This document shows, piece after piece, positions 6,653 through 60,064 of a DNA stretch of 64,000 nucleotides. This DNA comes from Bacteroidota bacterium (GTDB lineage Bacteria; Bacteroidota; Bacteroidia; UKL13-3). Location of the stretch: the NCBI GenBank assembly GCA_027484685.1, contig JAIXSO010000053.1, positions 48,164 to 112,163 of the forward strand, given 5' to 3'. The notes under the pieces were generated by a model that saw nothing but the letters and a program-made list of their open reading frames with translations, was not told where the DNA came from and searched no databases. Position 1 is the stretch's first letter; each line of letters opens with the position of its first letter. The position numbers and the translations under genes are program-made.

Positions 6653-7000
6653 AATAAAACATTATTTTATATTCTAAAGGTTAATTGTTTGTGAAGTTAA
6701 TTTAGTTGTTAGTTGTTAGTTGATGGTTGTCGGTTGATAGACAATAGACGATAGACCATGGTTTTGGGTTTAAATCAATAGTGGTAATTATTTTTAATTG
6801 CAAAATATTGGCAATAAAATGCTTGAAAAGAAGATAGCTAAATTTAAAATATTTCATTTCAATATTTACTGAGTTCAATTGCTATTGGACTTCTCTTTCA
6901 CTAATATTTTTTTGCAAACTGATAAAATAAAGCAAATAGTCATTCAGTAGGAATCCCCTTAATATGGCAACCAAGTTAGCTAATGGATAAGTAATTTCTT

Positions 7001-7125
7001 TTTTTCTGCTTTCTTTTTCCTTAGATGAAAAAGAAACAAAAAATCAAGGCAAAAAAATGCTTCCACGCACGTGGCCTGGGCTGGCCCGCTTTTTTGCCAG
7101 CCCCACTCACATCGTTAATGGAATA
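7001..7125. repeat. ~125-bp GC-rich intergenic repeat, copy A (inverted partner at 19741-19867)
   Basis: The reverse complement of 7001-7125 aligns to 19741-19867 at roughly 88% identity. It contains a GC-rich hairpin, gggctggc-N10-gccagccc. Confidence 0.8.
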
Positions 7126-7310
7126 ATTATAATATAATTTGGTTTTCTTTAACACAACCCAAATTTTTAAATTCCGAAGGGTTTTTATTTTTTTGAAAAA
7201 AATTATTACATAAAAAATTCAATGGTTTTAAAGTTGACAACATTCTAATTTTTCTTGAACTTAAACTAACCTAAGCAACACAAAAGTTTTAAATTAAAAT
7301 AAAACAACTT

Positions 7311-7318
7311 ATGTTTGA
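7311..7318 (+). promoter_or_regulatory. candidate Bacteroidetes -7 box (TAtgTTTG) for the lipoprotein triplet
   Basis: TAnnTTTG motif about 40 nt upstream of the ATG at 7358. No comparable motif lies before the second or third gene, which suggests co-transcription. Confidence 0.3.
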
Positions 7319-7357
7319 ATTACACTTTCAATTAATTGAGAACCCAAAACAGCAAAC

Positions 7358-8005
7358 ATGAAAACCTTAAAGCAAACTTGCCAAATTATAAATACCAAAA
7401 AAATCAAAATTTTTGGGGTTTTGTTTATGGTGCTGTTTTTACAAAGCTGTATGAAAGAAGAATACGACAAGGTAGAACATAAAACCAATTATTATTACTT
7501 AACAGCAGCGCAGCTTAACCAAACACCTTATTTTACCAACCCAACCTTTGATACCATAAGTTTTGCTAGCGATAAAGGCGACACCTTAACCTTTGTAAAA
7601 ACCCAAACCGATGATACTACTTGGTATTGCGAAAATGGCTCTGGAAACCCTAATACAGGCTACGATAAAGATTGTTACCAAACCATACATAATACTTATG
7701 CTACTGTTAAAGGAAATGGGAGTTTTGATGTGAAGCATATAAAAGAAAACAACTATCTAAGTACATATTTACAAATAAAATTCTCTAACCTGATTTTTTA
7801 TTACGATGCTATAGCAATCGATGACGTTACATTTGGAAGATTTATAGGCGATTTTGTGAAAAACAATCAAACTTTTAGAAATACAATTTACACTTACAAT
7901 AATTATACTGATAGTTTAATAGCAATAAGTTATATCAATAAAGACTTTGGCTTGTTTTCAATAAATGATAAATCAACTAATACCCAATATTTAATACTTA
8001 AATAA
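7358..8005 (+). CDS. family-A variable lipoprotein, copy 1
   Basis: 215 aa. Lipobox LQSCM. The first ~120 aa and last ~10 aa are near-identical to the two downstream paralogs, at ~93% nt identity. The middle is divergent. Confidence 0.6.
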   Translation: MKTLKQTCQIINTKKIKIFGVLFMVLFLQSCMKEEYDKVEHKTNYYYLTAAQLNQTPYFTNPTFDTISFASDKGDTLTFVKTQTDDTTWYCENGSGNPNTGYDKDCYQTIHNTYATVKGNGSFDVKHIKENNYLSTYLQIKFSNLIFYYDAIAIDDVTFGRFIGDFVKNNQTFRNTIYTYNNYTDSLIAISYINKDFGLFSINDKSTNTQYLILK

Positions 8006-8029
8006 TTTTAGAAACCCAAAACAGCAAAC

Positions 8030-8677
8030 ATGAAAACCTTACAGCAAACTTGCCAAATTATAAACACCAAAAACTGCAAACTTTTTGGGGTTTTGTTTAT
8101 GGTGCTGTTTATACAAAGCTGTATGAAAGAAGAATACGACAAGTTAGAACATAAAACCAATTATTATTACTTAACAACAGCGCAACTTAACCAAACACCT
8201 TATTTTACCAACCCAACCTTTGATACCATAAGTTTTGCTAGCGATAAAGGCGACACCTTAACCTTTGTAAAAACCAAAACAGATACAAGTTGGTACTGCG
8301 AAAAAGGCTCAGGAAACCCAAACACCGGTTACGATAAAGATTGTTACCAAACCATACATAATACTTACATAACCACAAAAGGAAATGGGAGTTTTGATGT
8401 GAACTACAATTACTATACTTCTCAATATGGATTATTTAGAATTGAATTATTTTTTGGCAATGTACACTTTGTTATTTGTGAGTGTGTAATTAACGACAAA
8501 ACATATAAGAATTATGTTGGTGACTTTAAAATTGGTAACAATACTTTTTCTGATTCATTTTTTGAATTTCATAATTTAGTTGATGATTCAATAGCCAAAG
8601 GATATTTCAACAAGAATTATGGTCTATTTTACTTAAATGACAAATCAACCAATACTGAATATTTAATTCTTAAATAA
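8030..8677 (+). CDS. family-A variable lipoprotein, copy 2
   Basis: 215 aa. Same conserved N-terminal and C-terminal modules as copy 1, with an unrelated middle segment. Confidence 0.6.
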   Translation: MKTLQQTCQIINTKNCKLFGVLFMVLFIQSCMKEEYDKLEHKTNYYYLTTAQLNQTPYFTNPTFDTISFASDKGDTLTFVKTKTDTSWYCEKGSGNPNTGYDKDCYQTIHNTYITTKGNGSFDVNYNYYTSQYGLFRIELFFGNVHFVICECVINDKTYKNYVGDFKIGNNTFSDSFFEFHNLVDDSIAKGYFNKNYGLFYLNDKSTNTEYLILK

Positions 8678-8693
8678 TTTAAAAACAGCAAAC

Positions 8694-9353
8694 ATGAAAA
8701 CCTTACAGCAAACTTGCCAAATTATAAATACCAAAAACATCAAACTTTTTGGGGCATTGATTATGATACTGTTTATACAAAGCTGTATTAAAGAAGAATA
8801 CGATAAGGTAGAACATAAAACCAATTATTATTACTTAACGGCAGCGCAGCTTAACCAAACACCTTATTTTACCAACCCAACCTTTAATACCATAAGTTTT
8901 GCAAGCGATAAAGGCGACACCTTAACCTTTGTAAAAACCCAAACCGATACTACTTGGTATTGCGAAAATGGCTCAGGAAACCCAAATACTGGTTACGATA
9001 AAGATTGTTACCAAACCATACACAATACTTATGCTACTGTTAAAGGTAATGGGAGTTTTGAGGTGAAGCATGGTAATGTTAATTCCAATTTGTTCTTTTA
9101 TCGAACCACAGATATGATTAATTTTCAATTTAATGAATTAAATTTTTTTATTCGGGACTATAGAATTGGAACTAAAAATGGAACAATTTTTTATGATACA
9201 ATATTAGTAGGTAATAACACATTTAGCAATTCAATAAAAATATTTCATAATTTGAATGATTCTGTTTCAGGGGAAGCACTTATAAATAAAGATTTTGGCG
9301 TGTTTTCAATAAATGATAAGCTAAATGATACTGAATATTTTATTCTCAAATAA
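8694..9353 (+). CDS. family-A variable lipoprotein, copy 3
   Basis: 219 aa. Same architecture. Tandem with 16-24 nt spacers that repeat 'aacagcaaacATG'. Confidence 0.6.
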   Translation: MKTLQQTCQIINTKNIKLFGALIMILFIQSCIKEEYDKVEHKTNYYYLTAAQLNQTPYFTNPTFNTISFASDKGDTLTFVKTQTDTTWYCENGSGNPNTGYDKDCYQTIHNTYATVKGNGSFEVKHGNVNSNLFFYRTTDMINFQFNELNFFIRDYRIGTKNGTIFYDTILVGNNTFSNSIKIFHNLNDSVSGEALINKDFGVFSINDKLNDTEYFILK

Positions 9354-9452
9354 TTTCAAAGCGAATAATCCATTTAACCCATAAAACAAAAAAGGTCAGC
9401 TCACGCTAACCTTTTAAAAGTTTTATCTATGGTCCATAAACCATCAACTAAA

Positions 9453-9467
9453 TCACGCAAGGCGTGA
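9453..9467. repeat. 15-bp palindrome TCACGCAAGGCGTGA, copy 1
   Basis: Perfect 6-3-6 palindrome at the nfu stop codon. The same motif occurs at 14286 and 25038. Confidence 0.8.
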
Positions 9468-9468
9468 A

Positions 9469-9705
9469 TCAACTAACAGCCACCACTCGAGTAATTTCGG
9501 GCAAGGCACTTTTAATTCCATTTTCAATGCCTGCTTTCATAGTAATATGGCTAATATCGCAACTACTGCAATTGCCAATTAAACGCACATGCACTTCCAT
9601 TTCATCAGTTACATCAACCAATTCTACATCGCCACCATCGGCTTGTAAAAACGGACGCATGCTGTTTAAAGCAATTTCTATTTTATCTCTCAACGAATCT
9701 GTCAT
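9469..9705 (-). CDS. nfu: NifU-like Fe-S cluster scaffold/carrier (Nfu domain)
   Basis: 78 aa. LQADGGDVELVDV...GNCSSCDIS is the classic NifU C-terminal domain with its CxxC motif. Confidence 0.85.
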   Translation of the reverse strand: MTDSLRDKIEIALNSMRPFLQADGGDVELVDVTDEMEVHVRLIGNCSSCDISHITMKAGIENGIKSALPEITRVVAVS

Positions 9706-9744
9706 TCTTAATTTTTTGCTTTTTACAAATCTATTATAATAACA

Positions 9745-10833
9745 CTAATTAGCACCAACTGTTTTTTCTTCGGCAGGAGTTGAGTTAATAATGGATACCA
9801 ATTGTGCTACATTTTGAGCCACTTTTGAAAATGCTTTGTAAACTGGACTTGTTTGGTCTAAAGCAGCAGGTTTACCAGAATCGCCACCCTCGCGTACACT
9901 CATGTAAATAGGTATTTGACCCAACAAACTTACTTTTAACTCGCTAGCCATGCTTGCACCACCATCTTTACCAAATATATAATACTTATTATCAGGTAAT
10001 TCCTCTGGAGTAAAATAAGCCATATTTTCAACCACACCTAAAATTGGCACCTTAACGGGTGTCATGCTAAACATGGTTGCAGCTTTATAAGCATCGGCCA
10101 AGGCTACAGCTTGTGGCGTAGTAACCATTACAATTCCGGTTAAAGGAACTACTTGCAACATGGTTAAATGAATATCGCCTGTTCCAGGAGGTAAATCTAA
10201 AATTAAATAATCTAATTCGCCCCAATCGCAATCGTTTACAAATTGGCGTAAAGCCGATGAAATCATGGGACCACGCCAAACTACTGCTTGCTCTGGTTTT
10301 ATTAAAAATCCAATAGAAAGCAATTTGATACCGTATTTTTCAATTGGAATCATGTATTGTTTGCCATTGATATCTCGCATTTGTGGTTGGCTATCCATTT
10401 CGCCAAACATCATTGGCACACTTGGCCCATAAATATCAGCGTCCAACAAACCAACTTTAGCACCCGTAGCAGCCAAAGCAATGGCCAAATTACTCGATAC
10501 CGTTGATTTACCAACTCCACCTTTTCCACTTGCTACTGCAATGATATTTTTAACACCTGGAAGCGTTAATTTTTCGGCACGATTAGAGCTTACATTGGCA
10601 GTCATGGTAACAGTAATATTGGCTTTATCGTTTACCAACTTATGAATTGCTTCTTTGCAATCGGTTTCTATTTTTTCTTTTAAAGGACAAGCAGGAGTGG
10701 TTAATACAATGGTAAAACTAACATTTAAACCATCTACTACCACATCTTTAACCATATTTAAAGTAACCAAATCCTTACGTAAATCGGGCTCTTGAACGGT
10801 TGATAATGCTTTTATTATATCTTCTTTTGTCAT
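9745..10833 (-). CDS. apbC: Mrp/NBP35 (ApbC) Fe-S cluster carrier ATPase
   Basis: 362 aa. N-terminal DUF59-like domain plus P-loop GKGGVGKSTVSSNLAIALA. The C-terminal CxxC region is typical of Mrp/ApbC. Confidence 0.9.
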   Translation of the reverse strand: MTKEDIIKALSTVQEPDLRKDLVTLNMVKDVVVDGLNVSFTIVLTTPACPLKEKIETDCKEAIHKLVNDKANITVTMTANVSSNRAEKLTLPGVKNIIAVASGKGGVGKSTVSSNLAIALAATGAKVGLLDADIYGPSVPMMFGEMDSQPQMRDINGKQYMIPIEKYGIKLLSIGFLIKPEQAVVWRGPMISSALRQFVNDCDWGELDYLILDLPPGTGDIHLTMLQVVPLTGIVMVTTPQAVALADAYKAATMFSMTPVKVPILGVVENMAYFTPEELPDNKYYIFGKDGGASMASELKVSLLGQIPIYMSVREGGDSGKPAALDQTSPVYKAFSKVAQNVAQLVSIINSTPAEEKTVGAN

Positions 10834-10930
10834 TTTGTTTTTATGTATTACAAATAAAGGTTTTTGTACCTAATGTTGTTTGCTGATTTTTATGCGTTGG
10901 TTTTATGATTAAGCTAAAATCATTGACTGA

Positions 10931-12208
10931 TTACAAAAACTCAAAACCAATATCTCTGCGAAAATATTTGCCATCGTAATTAATTTTATTGGCGTTAGCC
11001 AATGAAGTTCTTACTGCTTCATTCACTGAATTACCAAACGAAGTAATAGCCAAAACCCTCCCTCCATTGGTAACTATTTCGTTATCAGTACTTAACGAAG
11101 TGCCTGCATGAAATAACAAAGAATCGGTAACTTGCTCAAAACCAGTCATTACTTTGCCTTTTTCATAATCGCCAGGATAACCAGCAGAAACCATCATTAC
11201 GGTGGCAGTGGTTTGTTCGTTAATTTTCAGGTCAATATTATGCAATTCACCTTTGGCGGCAGCCACCATTAACTCCACAAAATCGGTTTCAATTCTTGGT
11301 AAAACGGCTTCTGTTTCTGGGTCGCCCATTCGGCAATTGTACTCAATAACCATTGGCTCCTCGCCTACTTTTATTAAGCCAACAAAAATAAAACCAACGT
11401 ATTTTATGTTTTCGTTTTTTAAACCTTGAACGGTTGGTTCAATAATGTTATCAATTACTTTTTGCATAAAAACATCGTTGGCAAAAGGAACAGGCGAAAT
11501 TGCTCCCATTCCACCAGTGTTTAAACCCATTTCACCCTCGCCAATGCGTTTATAATCTTTTGCCGTTGGCAATATTTTATACGAGTTGCCATCGCTCAAT
11601 ACAAAAACCGAAAGTTCAATTCCGCTCAAAAACTCCTCAATAACTACTTTTGCGCTAGCAGCACCAAACTTTTTATCGTTTATCATTTGTTGCAATTCGC
11701 TGGTTGCTTCTTCTAAAGTTTGACAAATCAATACTCCTTTTCCAGCAGCCAATCCATCGGCTTTAAGCACAATTGGCATTTTTTGCGTTTTTAAATACTC
11801 CAATCCTTCTTCTAAATTTTGGCTGGTAAAAGTTTTATAGGCCGCGGTTGGAATATTGTTTTTATACATAAAAGCCTTGCTCCAATCTTTGCTGGCTTCC
11901 ATGGTAGCACCCATTTTATCGGGTCCCACAAATAAGGTATTTTTTAAATGTTCGTTTTCTTCAAAATAATTGCGCAAGCCCAAAACCAATGGTTCCTCCG
12001 GACCCACAATTACCAAATCAATTTTATTTTCAAGGCTAAATTGGCCAACAGCCGCAAAATCGTTAGGATTTATTTTTATATTCTGACCAAATTGGGTAGT
12101 TCCCGCATTGCCAGGCATAATAAATAATTGTTTACATAACTTACTTTGAGCTAATTTATAAGCAAATGCATGTTCGCGTCCGCCAGAACCAATTAATAAA
12201 ATATTCAT
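10931..12208 (-). CDS. purD: phosphoribosylamine--glycine ligase
   Basis: 425 aa. Begins MNILLIGSGGREHAFAYKL, with ATP-grasp motifs throughout. Confidence 0.9.
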   Translation of the reverse strand: MNILLIGSGGREHAFAYKLAQSKLCKQLFIMPGNAGTTQFGQNIKINPNDFAAVGQFSLENKIDLVIVGPEEPLVLGLRNYFEENEHLKNTLFVGPDKMGATMEASKDWSKAFMYKNNIPTAAYKTFTSQNLEEGLEYLKTQKMPIVLKADGLAAGKGVLICQTLEEATSELQQMINDKKFGAASAKVVIEEFLSGIELSVFVLSDGNSYKILPTAKDYKRIGEGEMGLNTGGMGAISPVPFANDVFMQKVIDNIIEPTVQGLKNENIKYVGFIFVGLIKVGEEPMVIEYNCRMGDPETEAVLPRIETDFVELMVAAAKGELHNIDLKINEQTTATVMMVSAGYPGDYEKGKVMTGFEQVTDSLLFHAGTSLSTDNEIVTNGGRVLAITSFGNSVNEAVRTSLANANKINYDGKYFRRDIGFEFL

Positions 12209-12359
12209 TGGGCAAATATACCAATTAAGGCAAGCAAAATTTATAAAACCTAATTGAGTTGATGAATATTAGTTAACCCTATTTGGTGTAAAATAAAATT
12301 TGAAATTGTAGCAAAAACAGATTTTTTATTTAAACTTGCCTTAAATTTTTAAATAATTT

Positions 12360-13595
12360 ATGAAAAAAATATTTACCATTATTGCTGCTTTAGCAGTATT
12401 TACTAATGTAAGCGCACAAAGGTACAAAGACAAAATTTTTACCGAAGTAGCCATGGATAGTGTAACTTATGGTTCTGCAAAAAACTATGCTGGCTCTACA
12501 CAAGACCTGAAAATGAATATTTTTCAACCAGTAGGCGATACTGCAACTAACAGACCTTTATTAATATTGGCTCATGGAGGTTCATTTGTTGGTGGAAATA
12601 GGTATTTACCAGATGTAACTTATTTATGTACCGAATTTGCAAAACGTGGCTATGTGTGTGTTTCAATTCAATACCGTTTAGGTGTTAATCCAATCGAAAT
12701 TGCTCTAGACCAAAGCCAAGCAGGACCTCAATTTGCTAACGCTTTGTGGCGTGGAACTTTAGATGGAAGAGCGGCTGTGAGGTATTTAAGAGCTAACGCA
12801 AATACTTATAAAGTTAGTTTAGGTCAAGTATATTTAGGTGGAGTTTCGGCAGGTGGTGTACTTGGATTACATGAAGCATTTTTAGATACAGAAGCCGAAA
12901 TTGGAACAGCAAACCCAAGAATGGACACTGCTGCTATTGGTGGTGGCATTGAAGGTTTAAGTGGCACACCAGGACAAAGCTGGAGAGTAAAAGGAGTTAT
13001 TAATTTATGTGGCGCTTTAGGCGATGTAAATTGGATGAGTAATAACAAAAATGTTTCTATATTTAGTGTGCATGGAACAAACGATGAAACGGTTCCATAT
13101 AAAACTAATTTCTTTTCTTATGCAGGTTTGCAAATTGGCCGTTTAAGTGGAAGTTTTGTGGTAGATTCAATGGCAAAAGTATTGGGTATGAAATCGGTAC
13201 TTTATACTTTTCAAGGTGCACCTCATGTGCCGTTTAGCCCAGGAGTAGGAACTACAGCAAGTAGTACTGCGTATATGGATACTACCGAAGGTTTGTTAAG
13301 AGAATTTTTATTTGATGATATTAAAACAGCAGGTGTAGGTGTAAATAATGTATTGGCTAATAGCGATGTAAAAGTTTATCCAAATCCAGCTAAAGAAAAT
13401 GTTTCGATTGAAACCAGTAAAGGTAACAACAATGTAATTACCATTTTAGACTTAAGTGGAAAAACCATTGAAACTGTAAATACTAGCAAAACAATTACTG
13501 TTTTAAATACTACTAACTTAACTTCAGGAATTTATTTTATACAAATAACCAATGAGTTTGGTAGCATTACTAAAAAATTAGTAATTGAAAACTAA
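12360..13595 (+). CDS. secreted alpha/beta-hydrolase esterase with T9SS C-terminal sorting domain
   Basis: 411 aa. Signal peptide, HGGSF oxyanion motif and GGVSAGG nucleophile elbow. The C-terminal ~80 aa (KVYPNPAKENVSIE...GIYFIQITNEFG) is a Por_Secre_tail. Confidence 0.8.
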   Translation: MKKIFTIIAALAVFTNVSAQRYKDKIFTEVAMDSVTYGSAKNYAGSTQDLKMNIFQPVGDTATNRPLLILAHGGSFVGGNRYLPDVTYLCTEFAKRGYVCVSIQYRLGVNPIEIALDQSQAGPQFANALWRGTLDGRAAVRYLRANANTYKVSLGQVYLGGVSAGGVLGLHEAFLDTEAEIGTANPRMDTAAIGGGIEGLSGTPGQSWRVKGVINLCGALGDVNWMSNNKNVSIFSVHGTNDETVPYKTNFFSYAGLQIGRLSGSFVVDSMAKVLGMKSVLYTFQGAPHVPFSPGVGTTASSTAYMDTTEGLLREFLFDDIKTAGVGVNNVLANSDVKVYPNPAKENVSIETSKGNNNVITILDLSGKTIETVNTSKTITVLNTTNLTSGIYFIQITNEFGSITKKLVIEN

Positions 13596-13620
13596 ATTTT
13601 AAAAAACTAAACCCTTTAAA

Positions 13621-13660
13621 AAGCCGCTAATCACTAAAATTAGCGGCTTTCTTTATTTTT
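13621..13660 (+). terminator. intrinsic terminator after the esterase gene
   Basis: aagccgctaat-cactaaa-attagcggctt followed by ctttattttt. Confidence 0.6.
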
Positions 13661-13726
13661 GGGTTTAAAATATTGGGGTGGCAAGGTTGTTGTAAATAGG
13701 GTTTTTAACTTAAACCACATACATTT

Positions 13727-14269
13727 ATGAAAACCAAACACTTTATTTTATTCCTAGTTATTGCAGCTTGTTTTTCGGCCTGTACTCCTAAAATTATTTT
13801 TAACGAAGCACTTAGAAATAACCTTGACCTCAAGCAAATTAAACCTGAAAAACTCCAATTTTATATTGATAGAAGTATTGATATGCGCAGAGAAATTGCC
13901 TCTAACAGCACTAAAATTTCAGGAGGAAAAATTGAATATTATAAAGGTAAAAATGTGCAGATTTTAAATATAAAAGAACTTACACCTGGTATTTGTTTGC
14001 GCAGCACCGATTCTACCTTAGATATTGCATTTGAAAGCAATAACGAATTGTATTTAACTTTTAAAAAAATAAAATCGCCTGATTTAGATGTAAAAATTTA
14101 CATGCTTGATGGTTTTAAAAATGAAGAAGGAAACTTTTTTGTAAATTATGGAGGTGTAAGTTACCAAATAGACGAAAAAGCAGCCGAAGCCAAAATTTTG
14201 ATAAAACGCAAAATTGCCAATAAAGAAAATGTGAACGTGAAGAAAATTAAAGGCAGAAAGGTGAGTTAG
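13727..14269 (+). CDS. hypothetical lipoprotein
   Basis: 180 aa. Signal peptide with lipobox FSACT. Confidence 0.45.
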   Translation: MKTKHFILFLVIAACFSACTPKIIFNEALRNNLDLKQIKPEKLQFYIDRSIDMRREIASNSTKISGGKIEYYKGKNVQILNIKELTPGICLRSTDSTLDIAFESNNELYLTFKKIKSPDLDVKIYMLDGFKNEEGNFFVNYGGVSYQIDEKAAEAKILIKRKIANKENVNVKKIKGRKVS

Positions 14270-14285
14270 GATTGTTGAATTGTTA

Positions 14286-14300
14286 TCACGCAAGGCGTGA
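14286..14300. repeat. 15-bp palindrome TCACGCAAGGCGTGA, copy 2
   Basis: Located 17 nt after the stop of the 13727-14269 CDS. Confidence 0.8.
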
Positions 14301-14319
14301 TTGAATTGTTATATTGATA

Positions 14320-14552
14320 AATTGTTAAATTGTCAATTGCTAATTGTCAATTATCCATTGCTAATTATCCATTGTCAACTATCCATTGTCAATTATCCAT
14401 TGTCAATTATCCATTGTCAATTATCCATTGTCAACTATCCATTGTCAATTATTCCATTGCTAATTATCCATTGTCAATTATCCATTGCTAATTATCCATT
14501 GTCAATTATCCATTGCTAATTATCCATTGCTAATTATCCATTGTCAATTGCC
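14320..14552. repeat. 14-bp tandem repeat array (CCATTGTCAATTAT / CCATTGCTAATTAT, ~16 units)
   Basis: Read directly from the sequence. There are two unit variants (TC/CT swap) plus occasional AACTAT. The array explains the artefactual ORF 14301-14519. It lies between convergent genes. Confidence 0.9.
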
Positions 14553-14565
14553 TATTAACAAAAAC

Positions 14566-14601
14566 GCCCGAAATCAAAAGTGATTTCGGGCGTTTTATTT
14601 T
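14566..14601. terminator. bidirectional intrinsic terminator (gcvT / lipoprotein gene)
   Basis: A 12-bp stem cgcccgaaatca/tgatttcgggcg with A-run on the 5' side and T-run on the 3' side. Confidence 0.75.
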
Positions 14602-14611
14602 AAATTATATA

Positions 14612-15688
14612 CTACAAAAACGGAATTTTTACCACTTTAGCTTTAATCATTTTTTCGCGAATTTCGATGAAAATTTCTGAATCAACTTTGCTATGCGAAG
14701 CTGCTACATAACCCATACCAATAGCTTTGTTTAAACTTGGCGATTGAGTTCCTGAAGTAACTTCACCAATGGTATTTCCTTCTGCATCTTTAATCATGTA
14801 ATGTTGACGAGGAATACCACGGTCAATTAATTCGAAACCAACTAATTTTTTAGTAGCACCATTTTCTTTAATGGCTTTGTGATGTTCGCTCATTATAAAT
14901 GGTTTGGTAAATTTGGTAATCCAACCTAAACCTGCTTCAATTGGGCTAGTTTCATCGTTGATATCGTTACCATACAAACAAAAACCTTTTTCTAAACGTA
15001 AAGTATCGCGCGCACCTAAACCAACTGGAATAATATCAAACTCTTTTCCTGCTTCAAAAATGGCATCCCACATTTTTTTAGCATCTTTATTCCAAACATA
15101 AATTTCAAATCCACCTGCACCGGTATAACCTGTGTTTGAAATAATTACATCATCGCAACCAGCCATGGTACCACCGCAAAAAGTGTAATATTCCATAGCG
15201 CTTAAGTTTACATCAGTTAATTTTTGTAAAGCCTTAATAGCATTAGGACCTTGAACTGCAAATAAACTCATGTCATCACTCATGTTTTTCATTTCTACAC
15301 CAAAAGTATTGTGTTGGCTAATCCAATTCCAATCTTTTTCAATGTTTGATGCATTTACTACTAAGTAATACTCATCGGCACTCCAACGGTATACCAATAA
15401 ATCATCTACAATTCCACCTTTATCGTTTGGTAAGCAGCTGTATTGAACTTTACCATCGGTTAATTTTGAAGCATCGTTGCTGGTAACTAATTGAATTAAT
15501 TCAAGCGCTTTTTCGCCTTTTAGCATAAACTCGCCCATGTGGCTAACATCAAACACACCTACCGAATTGCGAACAGCTAAATGTTCTTGAATTAAATTGG
15601 TGTATAATACAGGCATGTTATAACCTGCAAATTCAATCATTTTTGCACCCAAGCCAGCGTGCAAATCATTTAAAGCAACGTATTTCAT
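14612..15688 (-). CDS. gcvT: glycine cleavage system aminomethyltransferase T
   Basis: 358 aa. [29 protein letters not shown] is the canonical GcvT N-terminus. Confidence 0.9.
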
Positions 15689-15810
15689 TTGTTAAAATAT
15701 TATTTTAGTTTTTATAAAGGCGAAAGTAATATAATACTTTAAAAAATTGCCATGTTGTAAATTTGATAAAAATTTGTTGATTAGTTAATTGAGTTGTTTA
15801 AGTTAATAGT

Positions 15811-16884
15811 TTAAAATTTTCGTGCGTAAATATTTGTGCTAGTTAATATGTAAAGTGTATTATCAATGACCCAATTACACTTTATTTCTTCATTTTCTGC
15901 AAAAGGTGTTGTAATACTTTCAACCTTTCCACTTTCAATATTTAATAAAGTTAGCTCGTTAAACAAATATTTATTATCATTACTATAGCTTAAAATCAGC
16001 ATGTACTTTTCATTAAAGTATGGAAGAACATTACCTAATAACTTATATTTATATACAACTGCAAAATCTGAAAAATTAGTTGTTTTGTATATTTCACGTG
16101 TGATGAAGTTATGAAAGTAAGCATAATTGTTAAAAGTCCCTATAAAAGTATAATCTTTTGAAATACTTTGATTGGTTTGAACCAGCATTGACTTGGTATT
16201 TATTGTGGCAAATTCATTTTCAAAATATTTCCAAAACACAATATTATCTCTTAATCTAAAAGTTGTATTGAAACCAGTTTTAGAAAAAATTGAGATGGTA
16301 GTATCTATTTTTTTGTTATTATGTCTATAATTAAATAAATAATTATAGCCTAATGCATTATTATAATTGTAGTAGGCGAAATAATCATATCCATAGCCAA
16401 TAAAGTTATATAAATTAGTTTCATTTGTATCTTTTATAAAGTAACTACGCGCAAAAAAATTGGTAATTATTTCTGTTCCATATAAATTATTTTCAATAAT
16501 TACTTGACTGCTTTTACCTGGTCCAGCTTGTGGGTTAATAATATAATAAAAAGTGTTTTTGAAATTAGGAAAGCCAGCAACTGATTGAAACTTAATAGCA
16601 GAATTTCCCGAGTTTAATATAAAATTGGGTGAGATTGTAAGATTGAAATTAGAGTCAATAAAAAAAACTTTATTATAACTTAACAACGCCATGCTTTTGT
16701 TTGGTTGGTAAGATACATCTGTTATATTGTTACCAACTTTATATGGAACTTTGTTCATCTTTGTCCATTTATTATAATAAACAATTGAATCAATTTCTTG
16801 GTTGTTGCTAACTGTGTTATTGTTTTCTTTTTTACAGGCAAAAAAGGAAAGTATTAACAAGGCAAAAAATATTCTTTTAATCAT
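15811..16884 (-). CDS. family-B lipoprotein, copy 1
   Basis: 357 aa. Lipobox SFFACKKENNNTVSN. The C-terminus ends ..NIYARKF. Paralogous to the two upstream genes. Confidence 0.55.
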   Translation of the reverse strand: MIKRIFFALLILSFFACKKENNNTVSNNQEIDSIVYYNKWTKMNKVPYKVGNNITDVSYQPNKSMALLSYNKVFFIDSNFNLTISPNFILNSGNSAIKFQSVAGFPNFKNTFYYIINPQAGPGKSSQVIIENNLYGTEIITNFFARSYFIKDTNETNLYNFIGYGYDYFAYYNYNNALGYNYLFNYRHNNKKIDTTISIFSKTGFNTTFRLRDNIVFWKYFENEFATINTKSMLVQTNQSISKDYTFIGTFNNYAYFHNFITREIYKTTNFSDFAVVYKYKLLGNVLPYFNEKYMLILSYSNDNKYLFNELTLLNIESGKVESITTPFAENEEIKCNWVIDNTLYILTSTNIYARKF

Positions 16885-16890
16885 GTCCTT

Positions 16891-17970
16891 TTAAAATTTT
16901 CGTGCGTAAATATTATCTTCAGTTAAAACATACAAAACATTGTCAATAATCCAATTACATCTTACCTTTTCGTAACGTTCTAATGGCATTGATAAAATTT
17001 GAGAGGATTTATTTTCTAGATTCAATAGTATAAATTCTGTTTCTTGGTCATTATAAGTGCTTAGGTATTTCACAATTAATAAATATTTTTCGTTAAAATA
17101 AGGTACTGGATTATTAATTAAATCATTCTTATAAACCATTTCAAAATCCGTAAAATTATTTGACTTATATATGCCTTGATTAAAAAATTTATTATTATAA
17201 AAGTAAGCACTATTATTAAAAGTACCTATAAAACTAAAGTTTTTTGGAACGCTTTGATTTTCTTGAACAGACATTGTTCGAATATTTATTGTAGTAAAAA
17301 CATTATTGTAATATTTCCAGAAAACCACTTTGTCTCCAAGTCTAAATGTAGTATTATAGCCTTCACCAGTAAAAGAAATTGTAGTATCTATTCTTTTTTG
17401 GTTGTTAAAATAGCGTAATTGATAGTTATCTAAATTAGGTAACGCTTTGTAAATGTAATATGCATAATAGTCTTCTCCATAACCCATATAATTGTAGGAA
17501 TTATTCTGGTTCGTGTCTTTTACGAAAAAATTTCTTGAATAAATTTGTGTATTAACTTCAGAACCATAAATAGTATTTTCAATAATTAGCTGATTGGACT
17601 TACCAGAAGACGAAATGGCATCAGTTAAATAAAAAAATCTATCTTTTATATTTGGAAAATCATTATAAGTTTGGAATTTCATGTAAAAAATACCAGAATT
17701 ACTAAAAAACCTTGGTGATAGATTTACTTTATAATTGGAATCTATAAAATACACCCTAGAATTAGTTAGCAAAGCAATGGCTTTATTTGGAAGATAAGAT
17801 ATGTCTGTAACGTAATCTGTCAGTCTTAATGGAACTTTGTTCATCTTTGTCCATTTATTATAATAAACAATTGAATCAATTTCTTGAGCGTTGCTAACTG
17901 TGTTATTGTTCTCTTTTTTACAAGCAAAAAAGGAAAGCATTAACAAGGAAAAAAATATTCTTTTATTCAT
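16891..17970 (-). CDS. family-B lipoprotein, copy 2
   Basis: 359 aa. The same N-terminal 45 aa are nearly identical to copy 1. Conserved motifs include VFWKY, IGTFNN, PYFNEKY and CNW. Confidence 0.55.
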   Translation of the reverse strand: MNKRIFFSLLMLSFFACKKENNNTVSNAQEIDSIVYYNKWTKMNKVPLRLTDYVTDISYLPNKAIALLTNSRVYFIDSNYKVNLSPRFFSNSGIFYMKFQTYNDFPNIKDRFFYLTDAISSSGKSNQLIIENTIYGSEVNTQIYSRNFFVKDTNQNNSYNYMGYGEDYYAYYIYKALPNLDNYQLRYFNNQKRIDTTISFTGEGYNTTFRLGDKVVFWKYYNNVFTTINIRTMSVQENQSVPKNFSFIGTFNNSAYFYNNKFFNQGIYKSNNFTDFEMVYKNDLINNPVPYFNEKYLLIVKYLSTYNDQETEFILLNLENKSSQILSMPLERYEKVRCNWIIDNVLYVLTEDNIYARKF

Positions 17971-17985
17971 AACTATATTTTAAGT

Positions 17986-19065
17986 TTAATAAAACTTTCT
18001 ACCATAAACATTATTACTCGTTAGCAAATATAAATTATCACCAATTACCCAATAGCATTGGGCTTCTCCATCCCAAGAATCCCAAGTAAAAGTAACCACT
18101 TTTAAGGTTTCAATATTAAGTAAACAAATGTTATGTGTTCTAATTGTATTTTGTTCAAACTGTTGAGAATACATGATGTACTTTCCTTTGTGATAAGCCC
18201 AAACTTTATCCATAATTAAATCTGTATATATTTTTTTGAAGTCTTTTAAATTGGAGCTTGAGTAAATTGATCCATCTGCTTTTTTCTCAAAATAAGCGGT
18301 GTTATTATAAATACCAATCAATTTGAAATCGGCTGAAAAAGTTTGGTTTGAATCAAGTTGGTTTGTAGCAAAATCAAAATACCTAAAATTATTTCCTGTT
18401 TCATTTAAAAAGCAAAGCTTGTTATTGAATTCAAATGCTTTTGTATAAAGCTGATTGATATTTAATTTTATTGATTTGGTAAGTATATTATTGCTAAAAT
18501 AATTAATAGAATACCCCATTGCTTTTGTTTTATCAATACCAAACCAAAACACCTTATAATCATCATTTTCCAACATGATATCGTAAATAATATTTGATGA
18601 GGTGTCATCAATAAAATAATTTTTATTGAAATACTCAAAACGTAAACTTTTTTCTGATGTTAAGTTATAAGAAACAAAAAATTGACTAAAAGATTTATCA
18701 TTGTTTCTAAATGTATTTAAATACAAAAAATAAGCATATAAAGAATCTGTAGTTTTAGACTCTGCAAAGCGTGATTGAATATTTGTTCCTGATTGTAAAC
18801 TTCTATATTGAAAAGGTTTACTTAATACTTTATTTTCATCAATAAAGTAAACATCATTATCACCTAATATGCATAAAATACTGTTATTATTAATTAATCG
18901 AATATCTTTAATGTACAAATAATCAATGAACTGATTGTCCATAAATTTAGTCCATTTATAATTCGTCAAAGTGGTATCCAGTTGACTTGTATTAACTGTA
19001 GTATTTTCTTCTTTTTTACAGGCAAAAAATGATACAAGCAGAAATAGCACAATAATTTTATTCAT
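17986..19065 (-). CDS. family-B lipoprotein, copy 3 (more divergent)
   Basis: 359 aa. Lipobox FFACKKEEN. Shares motifs YKWTKF, YFID, CYWVI and LYLLTSNNVYGRKF. Confidence 0.5.
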   Translation of the reverse strand: MNKIIVLFLLVSFFACKKEENTTVNTSQLDTTLTNYKWTKFMDNQFIDYLYIKDIRLINNNSILCILGDNDVYFIDENKVLSKPFQYRSLQSGTNIQSRFAESKTTDSLYAYFLYLNTFRNNDKSFSQFFVSYNLTSEKSLRFEYFNKNYFIDDTSSNIIYDIMLENDDYKVFWFGIDKTKAMGYSINYFSNNILTKSIKLNINQLYTKAFEFNNKLCFLNETGNNFRYFDFATNQLDSNQTFSADFKLIGIYNNTAYFEKKADGSIYSSSNLKDFKKIYTDLIMDKVWAYHKGKYIMYSQQFEQNTIRTHNICLLNIETLKVVTFTWDSWDGEAQCYWVIGDNLYLLTSNNVYGRKFY

Positions 19066-19193
19066 GAATTATAATTTTACAATTGCAATATAAAATTTAT
19101 TTATAAACTTGCAATTAACCTTGATTAACGAAATAAAATTTACTCAATTTTTAAGTATTCCTATCTTCGTATTTAACTCAAACCCCAAAAAAC

Positions 19194-19610
19194 ATGAAAA
19201 CAATTTTACGAAACGTATTAGCCGTTATAGTTGGCATACTAGTTGGTTCAGCAGTAAACATGGTGCTTATTAACTTAAGTAGTTTTATAATTCCACCTCC
19301 ACTTGGCGTAGATGTAACCACTGAAGAAGGTTTAAAAGCTGGCATACATTTATTTGAACCCAAACATTTTATCATGCCATTTTTAGCGCATGCATTGGGG
19401 ACCTTAGTTGGTGCGTTGTTAACAGTGTTAATAGCTGCCAATAATAAAATGAGGCTCGCTTTAACCATTAGTATGGTATTTTTTATTAGTGGAGCCATAA
19501 TGATTAATTTAGTTCCTGGTCCTATTTGGTTTGCAATAGTTGATTTGGTTTTTGCTTATATACCAATGGGTTTGTTAGCTGCAAAAATTGCTACTAAAAA
19601 AGAAATTTAA
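19194..19610 (+). CDS. small integral membrane protein (hypothetical)
   Basis: 138 aa with 3-4 predicted TM helices. Confidence 0.45.
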   Translation: MKTILRNVLAVIVGILVGSAVNMVLINLSSFIIPPPLGVDVTTEEGLKAGIHLFEPKHFIMPFLAHALGTLVGALLTVLIAANNKMRLALTISMVFFISGAIMINLVPGPIWFAIVDLVFAYIPMGLLAAKIATKKEI

Positions 19611-19740
19611 AGTAATTTAAAATAATATAAAACAAAAAAGACTTTTAGGAAATATTTAAATACAAATAGAAACTATAAATTCTAAAAAAAGTCTTTAGAT
19701 ATTCTAAAAAAACTGTAGATACTAAATTATAAAAATTTAT

Positions 19741-19867
19741 ATTCCATTAGCAACGTGCGTTGGGTCGGCAAAAAAGCGGGCCAGCCCAGGCCTGTGGGCA
19801 GAAGCATTTTTTTGCCTTGATTTTTTGTTTCTTTTTCATCTAAGGAAAAAGAAAGAAAGAAAAAGTG
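19741..19867. repeat. ~125-bp GC-rich intergenic repeat, copy B (inverted relative to 7001-7125)
   Basis: See copy A. It lies in the convergent gap between the 19194 CDS and hflX. Confidence 0.8.
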
Positions 19868-19964
19868 CTTTTGTTAGTTGACAAAAAAGACTCCTAGAAA
19901 AAAAGATAAACCTTGAAATCTATGAGTCTTTTTGTTTTAATAAATTATAAATCTTTAGCTACAA

Positions 19965-21119
19965 CTAGCTAATCGATTCAACAATTTTTTTCCTTAATTC
20001 ATCAATATTTACTTTTTTGGTAGCCGATATAAAAATTACTTGTCCATTTTCTTTTGCCATCCAAGTATTTTTAAGTTTCTCTATGTAAGGCAAATGCTCA
20101 GTTTCCTCGCCAAAAGGATCATCTGGCTCCAAAGGTTCTTTCAGTTGATCTATTTTATTAAAAATAAGTAATTGTTTTTTATTGCTAGCACCAATTTCTA
20201 ATAAAGTACTGTTTACCAAGTTTAATTGGTCTTCAAAATTTTCGTGGCTAATATCTACCACATGTAGCAACAAATCAGCCTCGCGCACTTCATCTAAGGT
20301 TGATTTAAAACTTTCTACCAATTGATGTGGTAATTTACGAATAAACCCAACGGTATCGCTCAATAAAAAAGGTACGTTATCAAAAACTACTTTGCGCACC
20401 GTACTATCCAAAGTTGCAAACAATTTATTTTCAACCAAAACTTCGCTTTTGCTTAATAAATTCATGATGGTTGATTTGCCCACATTGGTATAACCCACCA
20501 AAGCCACACGTTTTTTCTCATCTCGATTTTGCCTGCGTGTAGCCGATTGTTTATCAATATGGCTTAAGCGTTCTTTTAGTTTGCTTATTTCATCGCGCAA
20601 TAAACGTCTATCGGTTTCAATTTCGGTTTCACCCGGACCACGCATACCAATTCCACCTTTTTGCTTGGTTAAGTGGGTCCACATACGCGTTAAACGAGGC
20701 AATAAATATTGGGCTTGCGCCAATTCTACTTGATACTTAGCCTGAGCTGTACTGGCTCTATTAGCAAAAATATCCAATATCAAATTGCTTCTATCTAAAA
20801 TTTTTATTTTTAGCTCATTTTGGATATTACGCAATTGCGATGGACTCAACTCATCGTCAAAAATCACTATATCAATTTCACGGACAGTAATGTATTCTTT
20901 TATTTCTTCTAACTTTCCTTCGCCCACATAAGTGCGCGAGCTAGGATGAGGCAAGCGTTGTAAAAACTGCTTTTCTACAGCAGCACCCGCGGTTTGCGCC
21001 AAAAAAGCCAATTCGTCAATATACTCTTGCGCCTTTTCTATTTTTAAATTTGGAGTAACCACTCCTACCAAAACCGCACGTTCTTGCGGTTTAGCGGTAT
21101 CATATAATTTTTTTGCCAT
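19965..21119 (-). CDS. hflX: GTPase HflX
   Basis: 384 aa. N-terminal HflX domain followed by G-domain motifs GYTNVGKST, DTVGF and NKID. Confidence 0.9.
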   Translation of the reverse strand: MAKKLYDTAKPQERAVLVGVVTPNLKIEKAQEYIDELAFLAQTAGAAVEKQFLQRLPHPSSRTYVGEGKLEEIKEYITVREIDIVIFDDELSPSQLRNIQNELKIKILDRSNLILDIFANRASTAQAKYQVELAQAQYLLPRLTRMWTHLTKQKGGIGMRGPGETEIETDRRLLRDEISKLKERLSHIDKQSATRRQNRDEKKRVALVGYTNVGKSTIMNLLSKSEVLVENKLFATLDSTVRKVVFDNVPFLLSDTVGFIRKLPHQLVESFKSTLDEVREADLLLHVVDISHENFEDQLNLVNSTLLEIGASNKKQLLIFNKIDQLKEPLEPDDPFGEETEHLPYIEKLKNTWMAKENGQVIFISATKKVNIDELRKKIVESIS

Positions 21120-23669: not shown

Positions 23670-25016
23670 ATGAAATCAATTTGTACCTTTTTATTCTTTT
23701 TACTTTCATTTCTATTTTCGGTAAATGCATTTGCTCAAAAAAATGAAGCATTAGCTGTTCAAAAAGCACTCGAAATAATTGATTTGTTTAAAACAGAGCA
23801 ATATGAAAAGGCTTATTCGTTAGGCGATGAAATATTACAAAGAAGAATTACCCCTGATAGATTACAAAGCATTTGGGAAAGTTTAGCTACTATCAATGGC
23901 GAGTTAAGAGAAGTTGGAAGCACAGCTTATTTATTTTTAGATACAGCGCACATAACCACTACCAAATTAAAGTATAAAAATGGCTCTGTTGGCTTGCGTT
24001 TAAGTTTTAATCAGAACTGGAAACTGGTAGGTTTATTTATAGTTGATGCTGAGCCCATGTACAATATTCCTGATTATGTAAATACGTTTGGGTTTTATGA
24101 AATAAAAATTCCTTTTGGACCAGCTGGTTTTGAAGGCGAAGCTATTTTGACCGTTCCTATTCAACAGAAAAAATATCCTTGTGTAATTATTATTGGTGGC
24201 AGCGGACCAATAGATAAAGATGCTACCATTGGACCAAATAAAATGTATAAAGATTTTAGTTGGGGCCTTGCTAATAAAGGAATTGCAACAGTTCGATTTG
24301 ATAAAAGAACCAAAGCCTATTTTGGTAAAATAATGGAAGCGCATAAAAATGGTAATTATTATACCATTGAACAAGAATATTTAGAAGATGTAAAAGAATT
24401 GGTTAAAAAAGTAAGTAAAAAAGAAGCCATTGATGCCAATAGAATTTACTTAATGGGCCATAGCCAAGGAGCAGGATTAATGCCATTATTTTTAAAACAA
24501 AACAAATTAGTAGCTGGCGCAATAATGGCAGCTGGTAATTATACCACCATGCCTAATTTAATGCAGTATCAGTTTGACTATTTAATGCCTATGCAAGTTA
24601 AAACCAAAACTGACACTGCCGTTTTTGACAAGTTAAGAGCTCAGGCTAAAAACGCTACCAAAAGTAATTTACCAAGTACTTTTCCTAATGATAGTTTGCC
24701 AGCCATGTATCCGTTTAGCTACTGGAATTTTATGAATAAAATTGATTTTATAAAATTGGCTAAAACCAATAAAAAACCAGTATTAATTATTCAGGGAGAA
24801 CGCGATTATCAAGTGCCAATTAGTGAATATAAATTATGGAAAGATGCTTTAGTGGAGCATAATAATTACATGTTTACCTCTTTTACTAAATTAAACCATT
24901 TGTTTATGGAGGGCGAAGGAAAATCAACACCTGACGAATATTCGAAACGAAGCAATGTACCCGAATATGTAATAGACGAAATTGCTAAATGGATTAAAGC
25001 TCAACCAAGAAAATAA
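23670..25016 (+). CDS. secreted alpha/beta-hydrolase (S9/dienelactone-hydrolase-like)
   Basis: 448 aa. Signal peptide. GHSQGAG nucleophile elbow, and an N-terminal ~130 aa extra domain. Confidence 0.6.
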   Translation: MKSICTFLFFLLSFLFSVNAFAQKNEALAVQKALEIIDLFKTEQYEKAYSLGDEILQRRITPDRLQSIWESLATINGELREVGSTAYLFLDTAHITTTKLKYKNGSVGLRLSFNQNWKLVGLFIVDAEPMYNIPDYVNTFGFYEIKIPFGPAGFEGEAILTVPIQQKKYPCVIIIGGSGPIDKDATIGPNKMYKDFSWGLANKGIATVRFDKRTKAYFGKIMEAHKNGNYYTIEQEYLEDVKELVKKVSKKEAIDANRIYLMGHSQGAGLMPLFLKQNKLVAGAIMAAGNYTTMPNLMQYQFDYLMPMQVKTKTDTAVFDKLRAQAKNATKSNLPSTFPNDSLPAMYPFSYWNFMNKIDFIKLAKTNKKPVLIIQGERDYQVPISEYKLWKDALVEHNNYMFTSFTKLNHLFMEGEGKSTPDEYSKRSNVPEYVIDEIAKWIKAQPRK

Positions 25017-26955: not shown

Positions 26956-27146
26956 AACGAAAACGAAAAACAAAATTGGGGAGTGGAATAAAAATATGTT
27001 GTCCCAAAATCTTTAAAAGGCACGTCATTTCGAGCGGAGTCGAGAAGTTAACACTCTCGTTTTCAAAACATTTCTACCGATAGCTATCGGTATTCGCTCA
27101 ATGTGACAAAATGTATAAGGCTGGCCTTTTGAAATAGTCTTTTCAT

Positions 27147-42298: not shown

Positions 42299-42391
42299 GA
42301 AAATTCGAATAAATAATATCGAAATTCGAAAGAACAATAGTTGGAATAAAACAGCATTTAAATATTGTATAGAGTTTAACTTACCCTCTTA

Positions 42392-42862
42392 ATGAAATTC
42401 CTACCTATTGAAAATATAGTTTTTAAAAGTAATTTGAATGAGGACGAAATAATAGCACGTCTTACAGACGAGGTAGAATTTGAAAACACTTATATTAATT
42501 ACGTTTCTGGAAAACTTTTTGATGGTGAAATAACAGATAATAAATTTAAGATTACACGAAAAATAAACTATAGAAATTCATGTTTGCCGAAAATTATTGG
42601 TATTATTGAAAAAGATACAGATGAAACCAAAATAACTGTGCAAATGAAATTGCACAAAGGTGTTACCATATTTTCGTATATTTGGTTTGGCTCTTTGATA
42701 TTTATGTGTATTCTGTTTTTAAGTATTGGTTTTTATGAATTCAATCCATTTGAAATGATAATTTTCGGCTACATATTCATCATGTTATCTTTTAAATATG
42801 AGTCTTATAAATCAAAAAAGTTACTGAAAGATATTTTTAAAGCTGAAATAATTTCAGAGTAA
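42392..42862 (+). CDS. small two-TM membrane protein, paralog 1
   Basis: 156 aa. The N-terminal ~55 aa and C-terminal ~25 aa are near-identical (>90% nt) to the downstream paralog. The middle is divergent. Confidence 0.5.
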   Translation: MKFLPIENIVFKSNLNEDEIIARLTDEVEFENTYINYVSGKLFDGEITDNKFKITRKINYRNSCLPKIIGIIEKDTDETKITVQMKLHKGVTIFSYIWFGSLIFMCILFLSIGFYEFNPFEMIIFGYIFIMLSFKYESYKSKKLLKDIFKAEIISE

Positions 42863-42983
42863 TATTTTAGTGAGTAATTATTTGTCCTTAATGTCATTTC
42901 TAAATTCTTGTTTTGTTAATTAATAAATTTGATTTTATTATGCTACCAAATATTTGCTATCAAATAATAAGTCAATGAATTTA

Positions 42984-43454: not shown

Positions 43455-43497
43455 GATTTTATATTCTTTAATTAACATAATTAAATCAACTTTCAAC

Positions 43498-58563: not shown

Positions 58564-58577
58564 CTATACAAATTTTA

Positions 58578-59990: not shown

Positions 59991-59993
59991 AAT

Positions 59994-60040: not shown

Positions 60041-60064
60041 TTAATTTTAAAAAAGACACTTTAA

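Follow-up and report, generated by a model that had tools for sequence, protein, structure and literature searches.

The window analysed here, a stretch of 64,000 nt from a Bacteroidota bacterium (contig JAIXSO010000053.1, positions 48,164 to 112,163 of the forward strand), carries two inverted copies of a non-coding repeat, here called copy A and copy B, which lie 12.7 kb apart at the two ends of a block of housekeeping and lipoprotein genes. Copy A occupies positions 6998-7125 on the + strand (128 nt; 148.8 bits with covariance model R1; nhmmer E=5.7e-38), and copy B occupies positions 19740-19866 on the - strand (127 nt; 146.1 bits with the same model). Global alignment of these covariance-model matches gave 113 identical columns out of 129 (87.6%), and both direct reading and MAFFT aligned positions 7000-7125 with the reverse complement of 19740-19867. 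A repeat scan resolved the pair into two adjoining arms, I1 (7000-7070 versus 19794-19864, 71 nt, 92%) and I2 (7073-7125 versus 19740-19792, 53 nt, 87%). The copies share a perfect run of 55 nt (7009-7063 on the + strand, 19801-19855 on the - strand), which had no match in 100 dinucleotide-preserving shuffles, and the G+C content of each copy is 0.42, compared with 0.31 for the whole window. The inverted pair of about 125 bp and 88% identity, on which the original prediction for this stretch was built, is therefore real. A profile hidden Markov model search with nhmmer and the covariance model detected no copies in the window beyond A and B.

The repeat belongs to a family that is dispersed among Bacteroidota. 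An exact 25-mer of the core, AAAAATCAAGGCAAAAAAATGCTTC, was used as the family probe in a collection holding one genome per species and was found at 50 loci in 17 Bacteroidota genome records. The carriers are mostly metagenome-assembled genomes (MAGs) of low-GC freshwater Bacteroidota, with 4-8 exact 25-mer copies per MAG, including 8 each in JAIXWW01 and CANHVU01 and 6 each in JBIIBC01 and JBGSBN01. Some carrier records are misnamed; their flanks are nonetheless orthologous to those of the other carriers. Three species of Dyadobacter, a genus of Cytophagales, showed a single match each, and these copies are diverged. Together, the profile and the covariance model confirmed 55 copies in 431 kb of DNA fetched from the 17 genome records, three of them (L003, L007, and L048) being diverged neighbour copies without the exact 25-mer. 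A BLAST search against PLSDB additionally revealed 2-3 tandem diverged copies on plasmid p1 of Marivirga sp. BKB1-2 (NZ_CP129969.1), which likewise belongs to Cytophagales. On this 25-kb plasmid (L135), two clear tandem copies and one degenerate copy lie at 24570-24979, in a non-coding stretch of ~1 kb situated directly after a hypothetical gene; the plasmid carries phage-like genes and no annotated replication gene. The suggestion that the element might be a member of a dispersed REP/MITE-like family is thus supported, and the contrary case, in which only the two copies of the window exist, does not apply. Copy A is common to several species, and an orthologue of it is held by the closest relative of the window (L015, JAIXWW01); copy B was found only in the lineage of the window and in one relative of ~85% identity. 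A phage origin was considered and rejected, as IMG/VR gave one chance 19-mer match and none for the gapped pattern, and INPHARED phages gave none. Literature searches by sequence string and by topic returned no description of the repeat and nothing comparable for Bacteroidota. The family is apparently undescribed so far, and it is a new family of a known kind, namely small structured intergenic repeats.

The conserved core of ~128 nt extends from a T-rich lead-in to ...TAATGGAATA and is composed, in this order, of a hairpin (P1), a linker, a long-range helix (P2), and a tail, GACCCAACGCAC...TAATGGAATA. In copy A, P1 is located at 7010-7036 on the + strand (TTTCTTTTTC, loop CTTAGAT, GAAAAAGAAA); its counterpart in copy B, at 19828-19854 on the - strand, falls within the 55-nt run identical to copy A. 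The single-stranded linker of copy A (7037-7047, +) reads CAAAAAATCAA, is nearly invariant, and is followed by the GG that opens P2. Its invariance in alignments A3 and A5 is partly due to choosing copies by the exact 25-mer, and it is largely kept in copies without that 25-mer. P2 spans 7048-7098 on the + strand in copy A, where GGCAAAAAA..GC (7048-7060) pairs with GC.TTTTTTGCC (7088-7098), and 19767-19816 on the - strand in copy B, where it is followed on the + strand by TTGATTTTTTGTTTC. The P2 arms, GGCAAAAAA/UUUUUUGCC, are ~30-45 nt apart and enclose a variable GC-rich stretch.

Both helices are backed by compensatory changes. In a model-guided alignment of 53 distinct copies, which leans toward the model, 98.6% of the cells in P1 and P2 were paired. 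Changes on both sides were counted at 8 of the 21 pairs, against 0.8 in column shuffles and 1-3 with slid partners; within P1, five of ten pairs changed on both sides across the family. Compensatory variants could also be read in the raw sequences. For P1, these were GTTCTTTTGT/ACAAAAGAAC in Dyadobacter and GTTCTTTTC/GAAAAGAAC in JBGCFA01, with Marivirga likewise variant, and for P2 they were GGCGAAAAA/TTTTTCGCC in L003, GACAAAAA/TTTTTGTC in L007, and GGUGAAAAG/CUUUUCACC in Marivirga. The original prediction had instead stressed a GC-rich hairpin, gggctggc/gccagccc, said to be shared by the two copies. Perfect pairing of this hairpin (7078-7103 on the + strand in copy A, GGGCTGGC...GCCAGCCC) is confined to copy A with its orthologues, whereas the 3' arm of copy B and most members is gccgaccc, which leaves one mismatch and one wobble; most copies carry GCCGACCC. 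The hairpin is in competition with the P2 3' arm and gains no support from covariation across the family; the conserved structure is accordingly that of P1 and P2.

Other features proposed for the core were examined and discarded. The additional helices TTGGG/CCCAA and TTCCA/TGGAA, present in some predicted folds, are without compensatory change and are missing in diverged copies. The only open reading frame (ORF), MKKKQKIKAKKCFH..., is broken by 1-nt indels, absent in Dyadobacter, and cut by palindrome insertions, and the element is therefore considered non-coding. Rfam 15 gave no match at the gathering threshold in the whole window and only chance matches at E up to 10, the best sub-threshold match over the element being Phe_leader (26 bits versus a threshold of 55); tRNA and tmRNA genes were likewise not found. 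Two individual copies show unusual rearrangements of the fold. At L044 (3453-3579, -), the P1 loop is reverse-complemented (ATCTAAG for CTTAGAT) with the stem unchanged, and at L002 (1-112, -), the 5' half of the core and its reverse complement meet head-to-head, with an 18-bp palindrome at the centre; these forms suggest hairpin-mediated template switching.

Constraint on the core was assessed in seven orthologous locus sets (34 pairs), with 300 nt per side taken as flanks, much of it coding. At these orthologous loci, identity amounted to 97% in the 5' half of the core and 91% in the 3' half, compared with 76-82% in the flanks, and the core thus changes more slowly than the DNA around it. 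The 5' half is also near-identical, base for base, at unrelated loci and between species. This conservation stems in part from selecting copies by the 25-mer, yet conservation is just as good in all of P1 and in the P2 partner arm, neither of which was subject to that selection. The absence of drift in old orthologous copies favours purifying selection or continual homogenisation over neutral decay.

Around the core, the family is far more variable. The core is embedded in units of ~220-340 nt whose flanks are mosaic and define subfamilies; members of one of these have a right module of 100-220 nt in common, together with weak inverted ends of ~20 nt. In copy A, the core is preceded by the left flanking module of the long form (6939-6997, +; GTCATTCAGTAGGAATC...AACCAAGTTAGCTAATGGATAAGT) and followed by a right extension (7126-7148, +) that moves together with the core. 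This left module of ~60 nt is common to the orthologues L010, L015, and L032 and to a different locus, L022/L044. Copy B is bordered by an AT-rich right flank (19622-19739, -), with uncertain limits, that reaches to ~15 nt from the stop of the ORF at 19194-19610. This flank weakly resembles the right modules of L023, L028, and L042, is missed by the module profile, and may be part of a larger subfamily-2 unit. The subfamily-2 ends are ~20 nt long and imperfect (AGTYGAMC.TCAAAAAGTCTT), with scores of 9-10 against a shuffle mean of 6.4-7.5. No core-less copies of the subfamily-2 right module were present in the fetched DNA.

Both the position and the orientation of the repeat vary between relatives. 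At L034 (CANHVU01), an orthologue of copy A, the flanking genes are collinear with the window and the segment matching 6972-7146 is reversed; the element is likewise flipped between the same flanking genes in L029 and L037. Clean in-place inversion of the element was rejected as an account of these cases, since no conserved flanking inverted repeats were seen, only locus-specific low-complexity AT-rich ones, and the flanks of the flipped copies differ also by indels of tens to hundreds of bp. In L004 and L039, a copy of the same subfamily lies on opposite sides of one 174-aa gene, and the junction that is filled in L004 and empty in L039 bears a perfect tandem 9-bp duplication, CACAGATTA CACAGATTA, which could be an excision footprint. 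Copy B itself is missing after hflX in the relatives L053-L055. Direct repeats flank some copies, with lengths of 9 bp (L020), 11 bp (L026), and 14 bp (L001). These turnover features fit a mobile or recombining repeat, without defining a transposition mechanism.

A perfect 18-bp palindrome, TCCCGAWAGCTWTCGGGA, is nested in five copies and also occurs elsewhere. Within element copies it was found in the variable region at L002, L030, L031 (twice), L038, and L043, and it stands at unrelated intergenic sites at L030 (7369), L036 (6546), L044 (6871), and L054 (17052); the window holds a variant, TACCGATAGCTATCGGTA, at 27075-27092. It looks like a separate mini hairpin repeat. At L031, one of the two inserted palindromes directly abuts the T-run, which gives a canonical terminator shape.

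The element has no fixed gene partner. Its neighbours, as read from the sequences, include DnaJ and other unrelated housekeeping-type proteins, and no transposase-like or recombinase neighbours were seen among the flanking proteins inspected. For orientation statistics, orthologues were collapsed into 32 locus groups. In 24 of the 31 groups, the gene to the right, on the TAATGGAATA side, points toward the element (binomial p=0.003). The gene to the left has no preferred strand, but frequently ends only 9-35 nt ahead of the element. The orientation bias and the close stops indicate that transcription usually reaches the element from an adjacent gene, of whose transcript it forms the tail, and mostly on the reverse strand of the element. 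On that strand, G-C pairs close P2 and UUGAUUUUUUGUUUCUUUUU comes next; P2 then UUGAUUUUUU is present on the reverse strand of all copies, and the A-run and U-run of the element pair with each other. Copy B has the usual layout, and a consensus scan marked a terminator-like site within it (19796-19817, + strand). Few copies occupy a divergent gap, and copy A is among them. The Bacteroidetes -7 motif, TAnnTTTG, does not recur at a constant place within the element or its near flanks, whichever strand is read. A dedicated promoter was rejected on the grounds that TAnnTTTG is unenriched and that the right end has no more sigma-70-type matches than shuffled sequence; promoters of the sigma-70 type are, moreover, not those that Bacteroidota are known to use. 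A replication terminus or fork trap was also dismissed, the GC skew being negative throughout the window with no turning point at the block.

The genes between and beside the two copies were assigned by Pfam, with lipoproteins recognised by a signal peptide followed by Cys. The block contains a NifU-like gene (9469-9705, -), mrp/apbC (9745-10833, -), purD (10931-12208, -), an esterase gene with a type IX secretion system sorting tail (12360-13595, +), and gcvT (14612-15688, -). Two arrays of three lipoprotein paralogues lie outside the element as context at the ends of the block, array 1 at 7358-9353 on the + strand (lipobox LQSC) and array 2 at 15811-19065 on the - strand (lipobox FFAC). The gene content given in the original prediction (nfu-mrp-purD, the esterase, gcvT, and two triplicated lipoprotein arrays) was correct, and the gene map agrees with its placement of copy A in a divergent gap and copy B in a convergent one. 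Copy A separates a PorV-like gene (-) from array 1 (+), and copy B lies between hflX (19965-21119, -) and a membrane-like ORF of 138 aa (19194-19610, +) that adjoins it. A separate terminator-like hairpin, identified from sequence at 19883-19930 on the - strand (AAGACTCATAGA...TCTAGGAGTCTT then T6), is situated 3' of hflX, between that gene and copy B. Since hflX has this hairpin of its own, the element is apparently not needed for hflX termination. That the lipoprotein arrays sit at the ends of the block looks like a coincidence, because the neighbours across the repeat family are unrelated housekeeping genes.

Other repeats were observed in the window. Inside the block, between an ORF of 180 aa (13727-14269) and gcvT, positions 14343-14549 hold a tandem array of a 14-nt unit, ATTGTCAATTATCC, with 14.7 copies and 88% matches. 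A 48-bp perfect direct repeat with its own hairpin, AGTTCGCCAAAAC...GTTTTGGCGAACT, at 58518-58565 and 59994-60041, brackets a single 493-aa ORF (58578-60059, -) and resembles an inserted gene with duplicated ends. Positions 42389-43461 comprise two tandem units of ~590 bp, 82-92% identical, which represent another local paralogue duplication.

Taken as a whole, we consider it reasonably likely that the repeat is a structured intergenic element of MITE/ERIC-like character (MITE, miniature inverted-repeat transposable element; ERIC, enterobacterial repetitive intergenic consensus) that was mobile and then retained as a 3'-end or terminator module, with the inverted pair being incidental. The analysis establishes the family itself, both helices, the slow rate of change, and the variability in position and orientation; the account of spread and retention is inferred from these. 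The core folds, as RNA or as single-stranded DNA, into P1, the conserved A-rich linker AAAAAUCAAGG, and P2 around the variable GC-rich region. The element would have spread by transposition or recombination and would then have been kept where it is transcribed at gene ends and serves as a 3'-end module. From its sequence, a role as 3'-end or terminator module is probable, as P2 on the reverse strand and its U-rich tract would suit termination or stabilisation of the transcript arriving from the right-hand gene. The two copies of the window, 12.7 kb apart and inverted, would be an accident of two separate insertions; they could recombine in principle, yet would form no dedicated switch.

Several observations weigh against this account. 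With regard to termination, the terminator scan marked copy B only and nothing in copy A, and a terminator role leaves unexplained why the loop and linker sequences AAUCAAGG, AUGCUUCC, and CUGGCCCGC are kept across orders. Minimum-free-energy folding of the forward strand yields P2 in about half of the copies; folding of the reverse strand seldom does. Wobble pairs are balanced (4 G-T versus 5 A-C) and show no strand preference, which makes an RNA fold indistinguishable from a DNA fold and one folded strand from the other. With regard to mobility, perfect flanking 9-mers accompany 10 of 47 copies compared with 8 of 47 controls, with no consistent target-site duplication; the core is without terminal inverted repeats, and 20-50 of 500 shuffles match the subfamily-2 end score (p ~0.04-0.1). 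No transposase and no cognate insertion sequence with matching ends were present in the fetched loci. Finally, 4-8 copies per MAG is a low number, unlike classical REPs.

A different origin of the conservation would follow if the cores were independently transcribed small RNA (sRNA) genes or another trans-acting structured RNA, with the linker and loops as seed or protein-binding surface. A core conserved far above the flanking DNA, coding sequence included, two covarying helices, and a motif kept across orders would all suit such a role, and the multiple paralogous copies per genome follow a pattern known for some sRNA families. We nevertheless regard it as unlikely, given that TAnnTTTG lacks a constant spacing on both strands, that the forward-strand structure is not followed by a canonical terminator, that genes upstream frequently end merely 9-35 nt ahead of the element, that no Rfam family matches, and that indels and 18-bp palindrome insertions are tolerated within P2. 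The balanced wobble pairs, being without strand bias, would agree with an element that acts as double-stranded or cruciform DNA, as a binding or recombination site for a conserved protein, possibly as a small invertible switch. In line with this, the element is flipped in two of ~15 orthologous locus sets, which is unlikely to result from independent insertions at ~10 copies per genome; the flipped P1 loop of L044, the head-to-head palindromic form of L002, and the plasmid tandem array in its ~1-kb non-coding stretch point in the same direction. A DNA site of this kind nonetheless appears improbable to us: the flipped segments are not surrounded by conserved inverted repeats, the indels in their flanks show that they are not clean inversions, no recombinase gene adjoins the copies, and the GC skew indicates neither an origin nor a terminus at the block.

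The remaining alternative concerns the pair rather than the family, and holds that the two copies form a working recombination substrate through which the whole block flips, changing the context or expression of the lipoprotein arrays. The original prediction had named the pair a substrate for inversion, and this stands to the extent that a 55-nt run is long enough for RecA-type recombination; no inversion isomer was found. Beyond the perfect run and the 87.6% identity over 128 nt in inverted orientation, a flipping block could draw on the synteny break among relatives that coincides with the copy B side and on the orientation changes of the element, which show the region to be recombinationally active. 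The comparisons made here speak otherwise. Across the copy A junction, the order seen in the window is also that of the relatives L010, L015, L032, and L034. Those anchored on HflX (L053-L055; 94-95% identical HflX) have no element after hflX, unrelated genes downstream, and no array 1; in L055, hflX is followed by a gap of ~2.4 kb and then by homologues of the window from 42.3 to 33 kb. No relative with an inverted block emerged from the hflX anchor search, which gave no close copy-B relative on a long contig. Two Logan contigs with identical HflX, matching the window at 100% (run SRR16126889) and ~85% (run SRR14578347), end inside the repeat, as expected of a multi-copy sequence, and provide no linkage, with the consequence that contigs of this kind barely allow isomers to be tested. 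Copy B therefore marks a synteny break and not the predicted isomer. In addition, inversion would shift no obvious promoter, and the same element adjoins unrelated genes elsewhere. Inversion of 7126-19739 is a formal possibility, allowed in principle and unsupported, and a functional block flip seems to us very unlikely; most likely, the pair simply arose as the repeat became scattered and is no device for flipping the lipoprotein block. As a separate observation, L010 (JBIIBC01 contig 6, 6166-8000) is collinear with the window only as far as the esterase (13610) and continues with a reversed homologue of 47278-46739, and its junction is another rearrangement breakpoint near the block.

The retained 3'-end module thus remains our preferred reading, and the conservation of linker and loops across orders is the sole feature that no ordinary explanation covers. 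It is conceivable, although we hold it doubtful, that the P1-AAUCAAGG-P2 core is more than a mobile element in decay, namely a selectively maintained, Bacteroidota-wide module whose linker and loops are read by a specific partner, and that it is possibly re-oriented in place. If true, such a partner-read module could, for example, represent an RNA of a new class that acts at 3' ends or as an insulator, or else a DNA site to which a protein binds. REP, ERIC, and Correia-type repeats have been studied mostly in Proteobacteria and Firmicutes, and a core with 91-97% identity against ~80% in flanks that include coding sequence makes this family a candidate regulatory or architectural module of gene ends. 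On the practical side, the repeat breaks short-read assemblies, as in the two Logan contigs, and coincides with synteny breaks; it can therefore serve to flag assembly gaps and rearrangement sites in MAGs of freshwater Bacteroidota.

The repeat was compared with several known systems. With intrinsic terminators it has in common the reverse-strand P2 followed by UUGAUUUUUUGUUUCUUUUU and the incoming gene on that side at 24 of 31 loci; ordinary terminators, however, are not sequence-conserved between loci or genera. It differs from invertons in having no conserved flanking inverted repeats and no internal promoter (TAnnTTTG) in the element. Like REP, BIME, and REPIN sequences with RAYT, it is an extragenic element with hairpins, often at gene 3' ends or in convergent gaps, with mosaic combinations of modules and hairpins kept by compensatory change. 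REPs are described as GC-rich palindromes of 20-40 nt with a GTAG or CGTC tag and hundreds of copies (PMC3733652). In contrast, the core here measures 128 nt, P1 and P2 are AT-rich, there is no tagged GC palindrome, and the copy number is low; by size, tag, and copy number it is thus not a REP. The inspected flanking proteins included no RAYT, the genomes as wholes not having been searched for RAYT.

The likeness to Correia/NEMIS repeats of Neisseria and to the MITEs RUP and RPE is closer, as these are dispersed, non-autonomous sequences of 100-200 bp with block-wise subfamilies and with sites that are occupied in some strains and vacant in others; functions as terminator, promoter, or RNase target have been proposed for them (PMC2229807). 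Correia elements have clear terminal inverted repeats of 24-26 bp, TA duplications, and ~100 or more copies, whereas the terminal repeats here are at best weak in one subfamily, direct repeats are inconsistent, and each MAG holds 4-8 copies. Small non-coding dispersed copies and differences in presence, absence, or position between relatives are the traits of bacterial MITEs found in this family; the terminal repeats and duplications that also define MITEs are not clearly recognisable in it. ERIC, also named IRU, offers a further parallel, being likewise ~127-128 nt long, non-coding, located between genes in transcribed regions in either orientation, with stable stems, variants with internal insertions, low to moderate copy number, and conservation above its surroundings. 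ERIC is reportedly conserved across species more than the sequences around it, and the repeat studied here behaves in an ERIC-like way in its intergenic position, its use of either orientation, and its core identities of 97% and 91% against 76-82% in the flanks. The repeat bears no apparent resemblance to the ERIC consensus, and the comparison is meant as a working analogy, not as a claim of membership. The two also differ in that ERIC is one long imperfect palindrome, whereas P1 and P2 are separate helices in another host phylum, and in that neither a TA duplication nor terminal inverted repeats of 7 bp were observed here. The effects of ERIC on mRNA stability depend on its orientation (PMC2229807). 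Overall, we infer that the repeat behaves most like ERIC/IRU and Correia-type MITEs.

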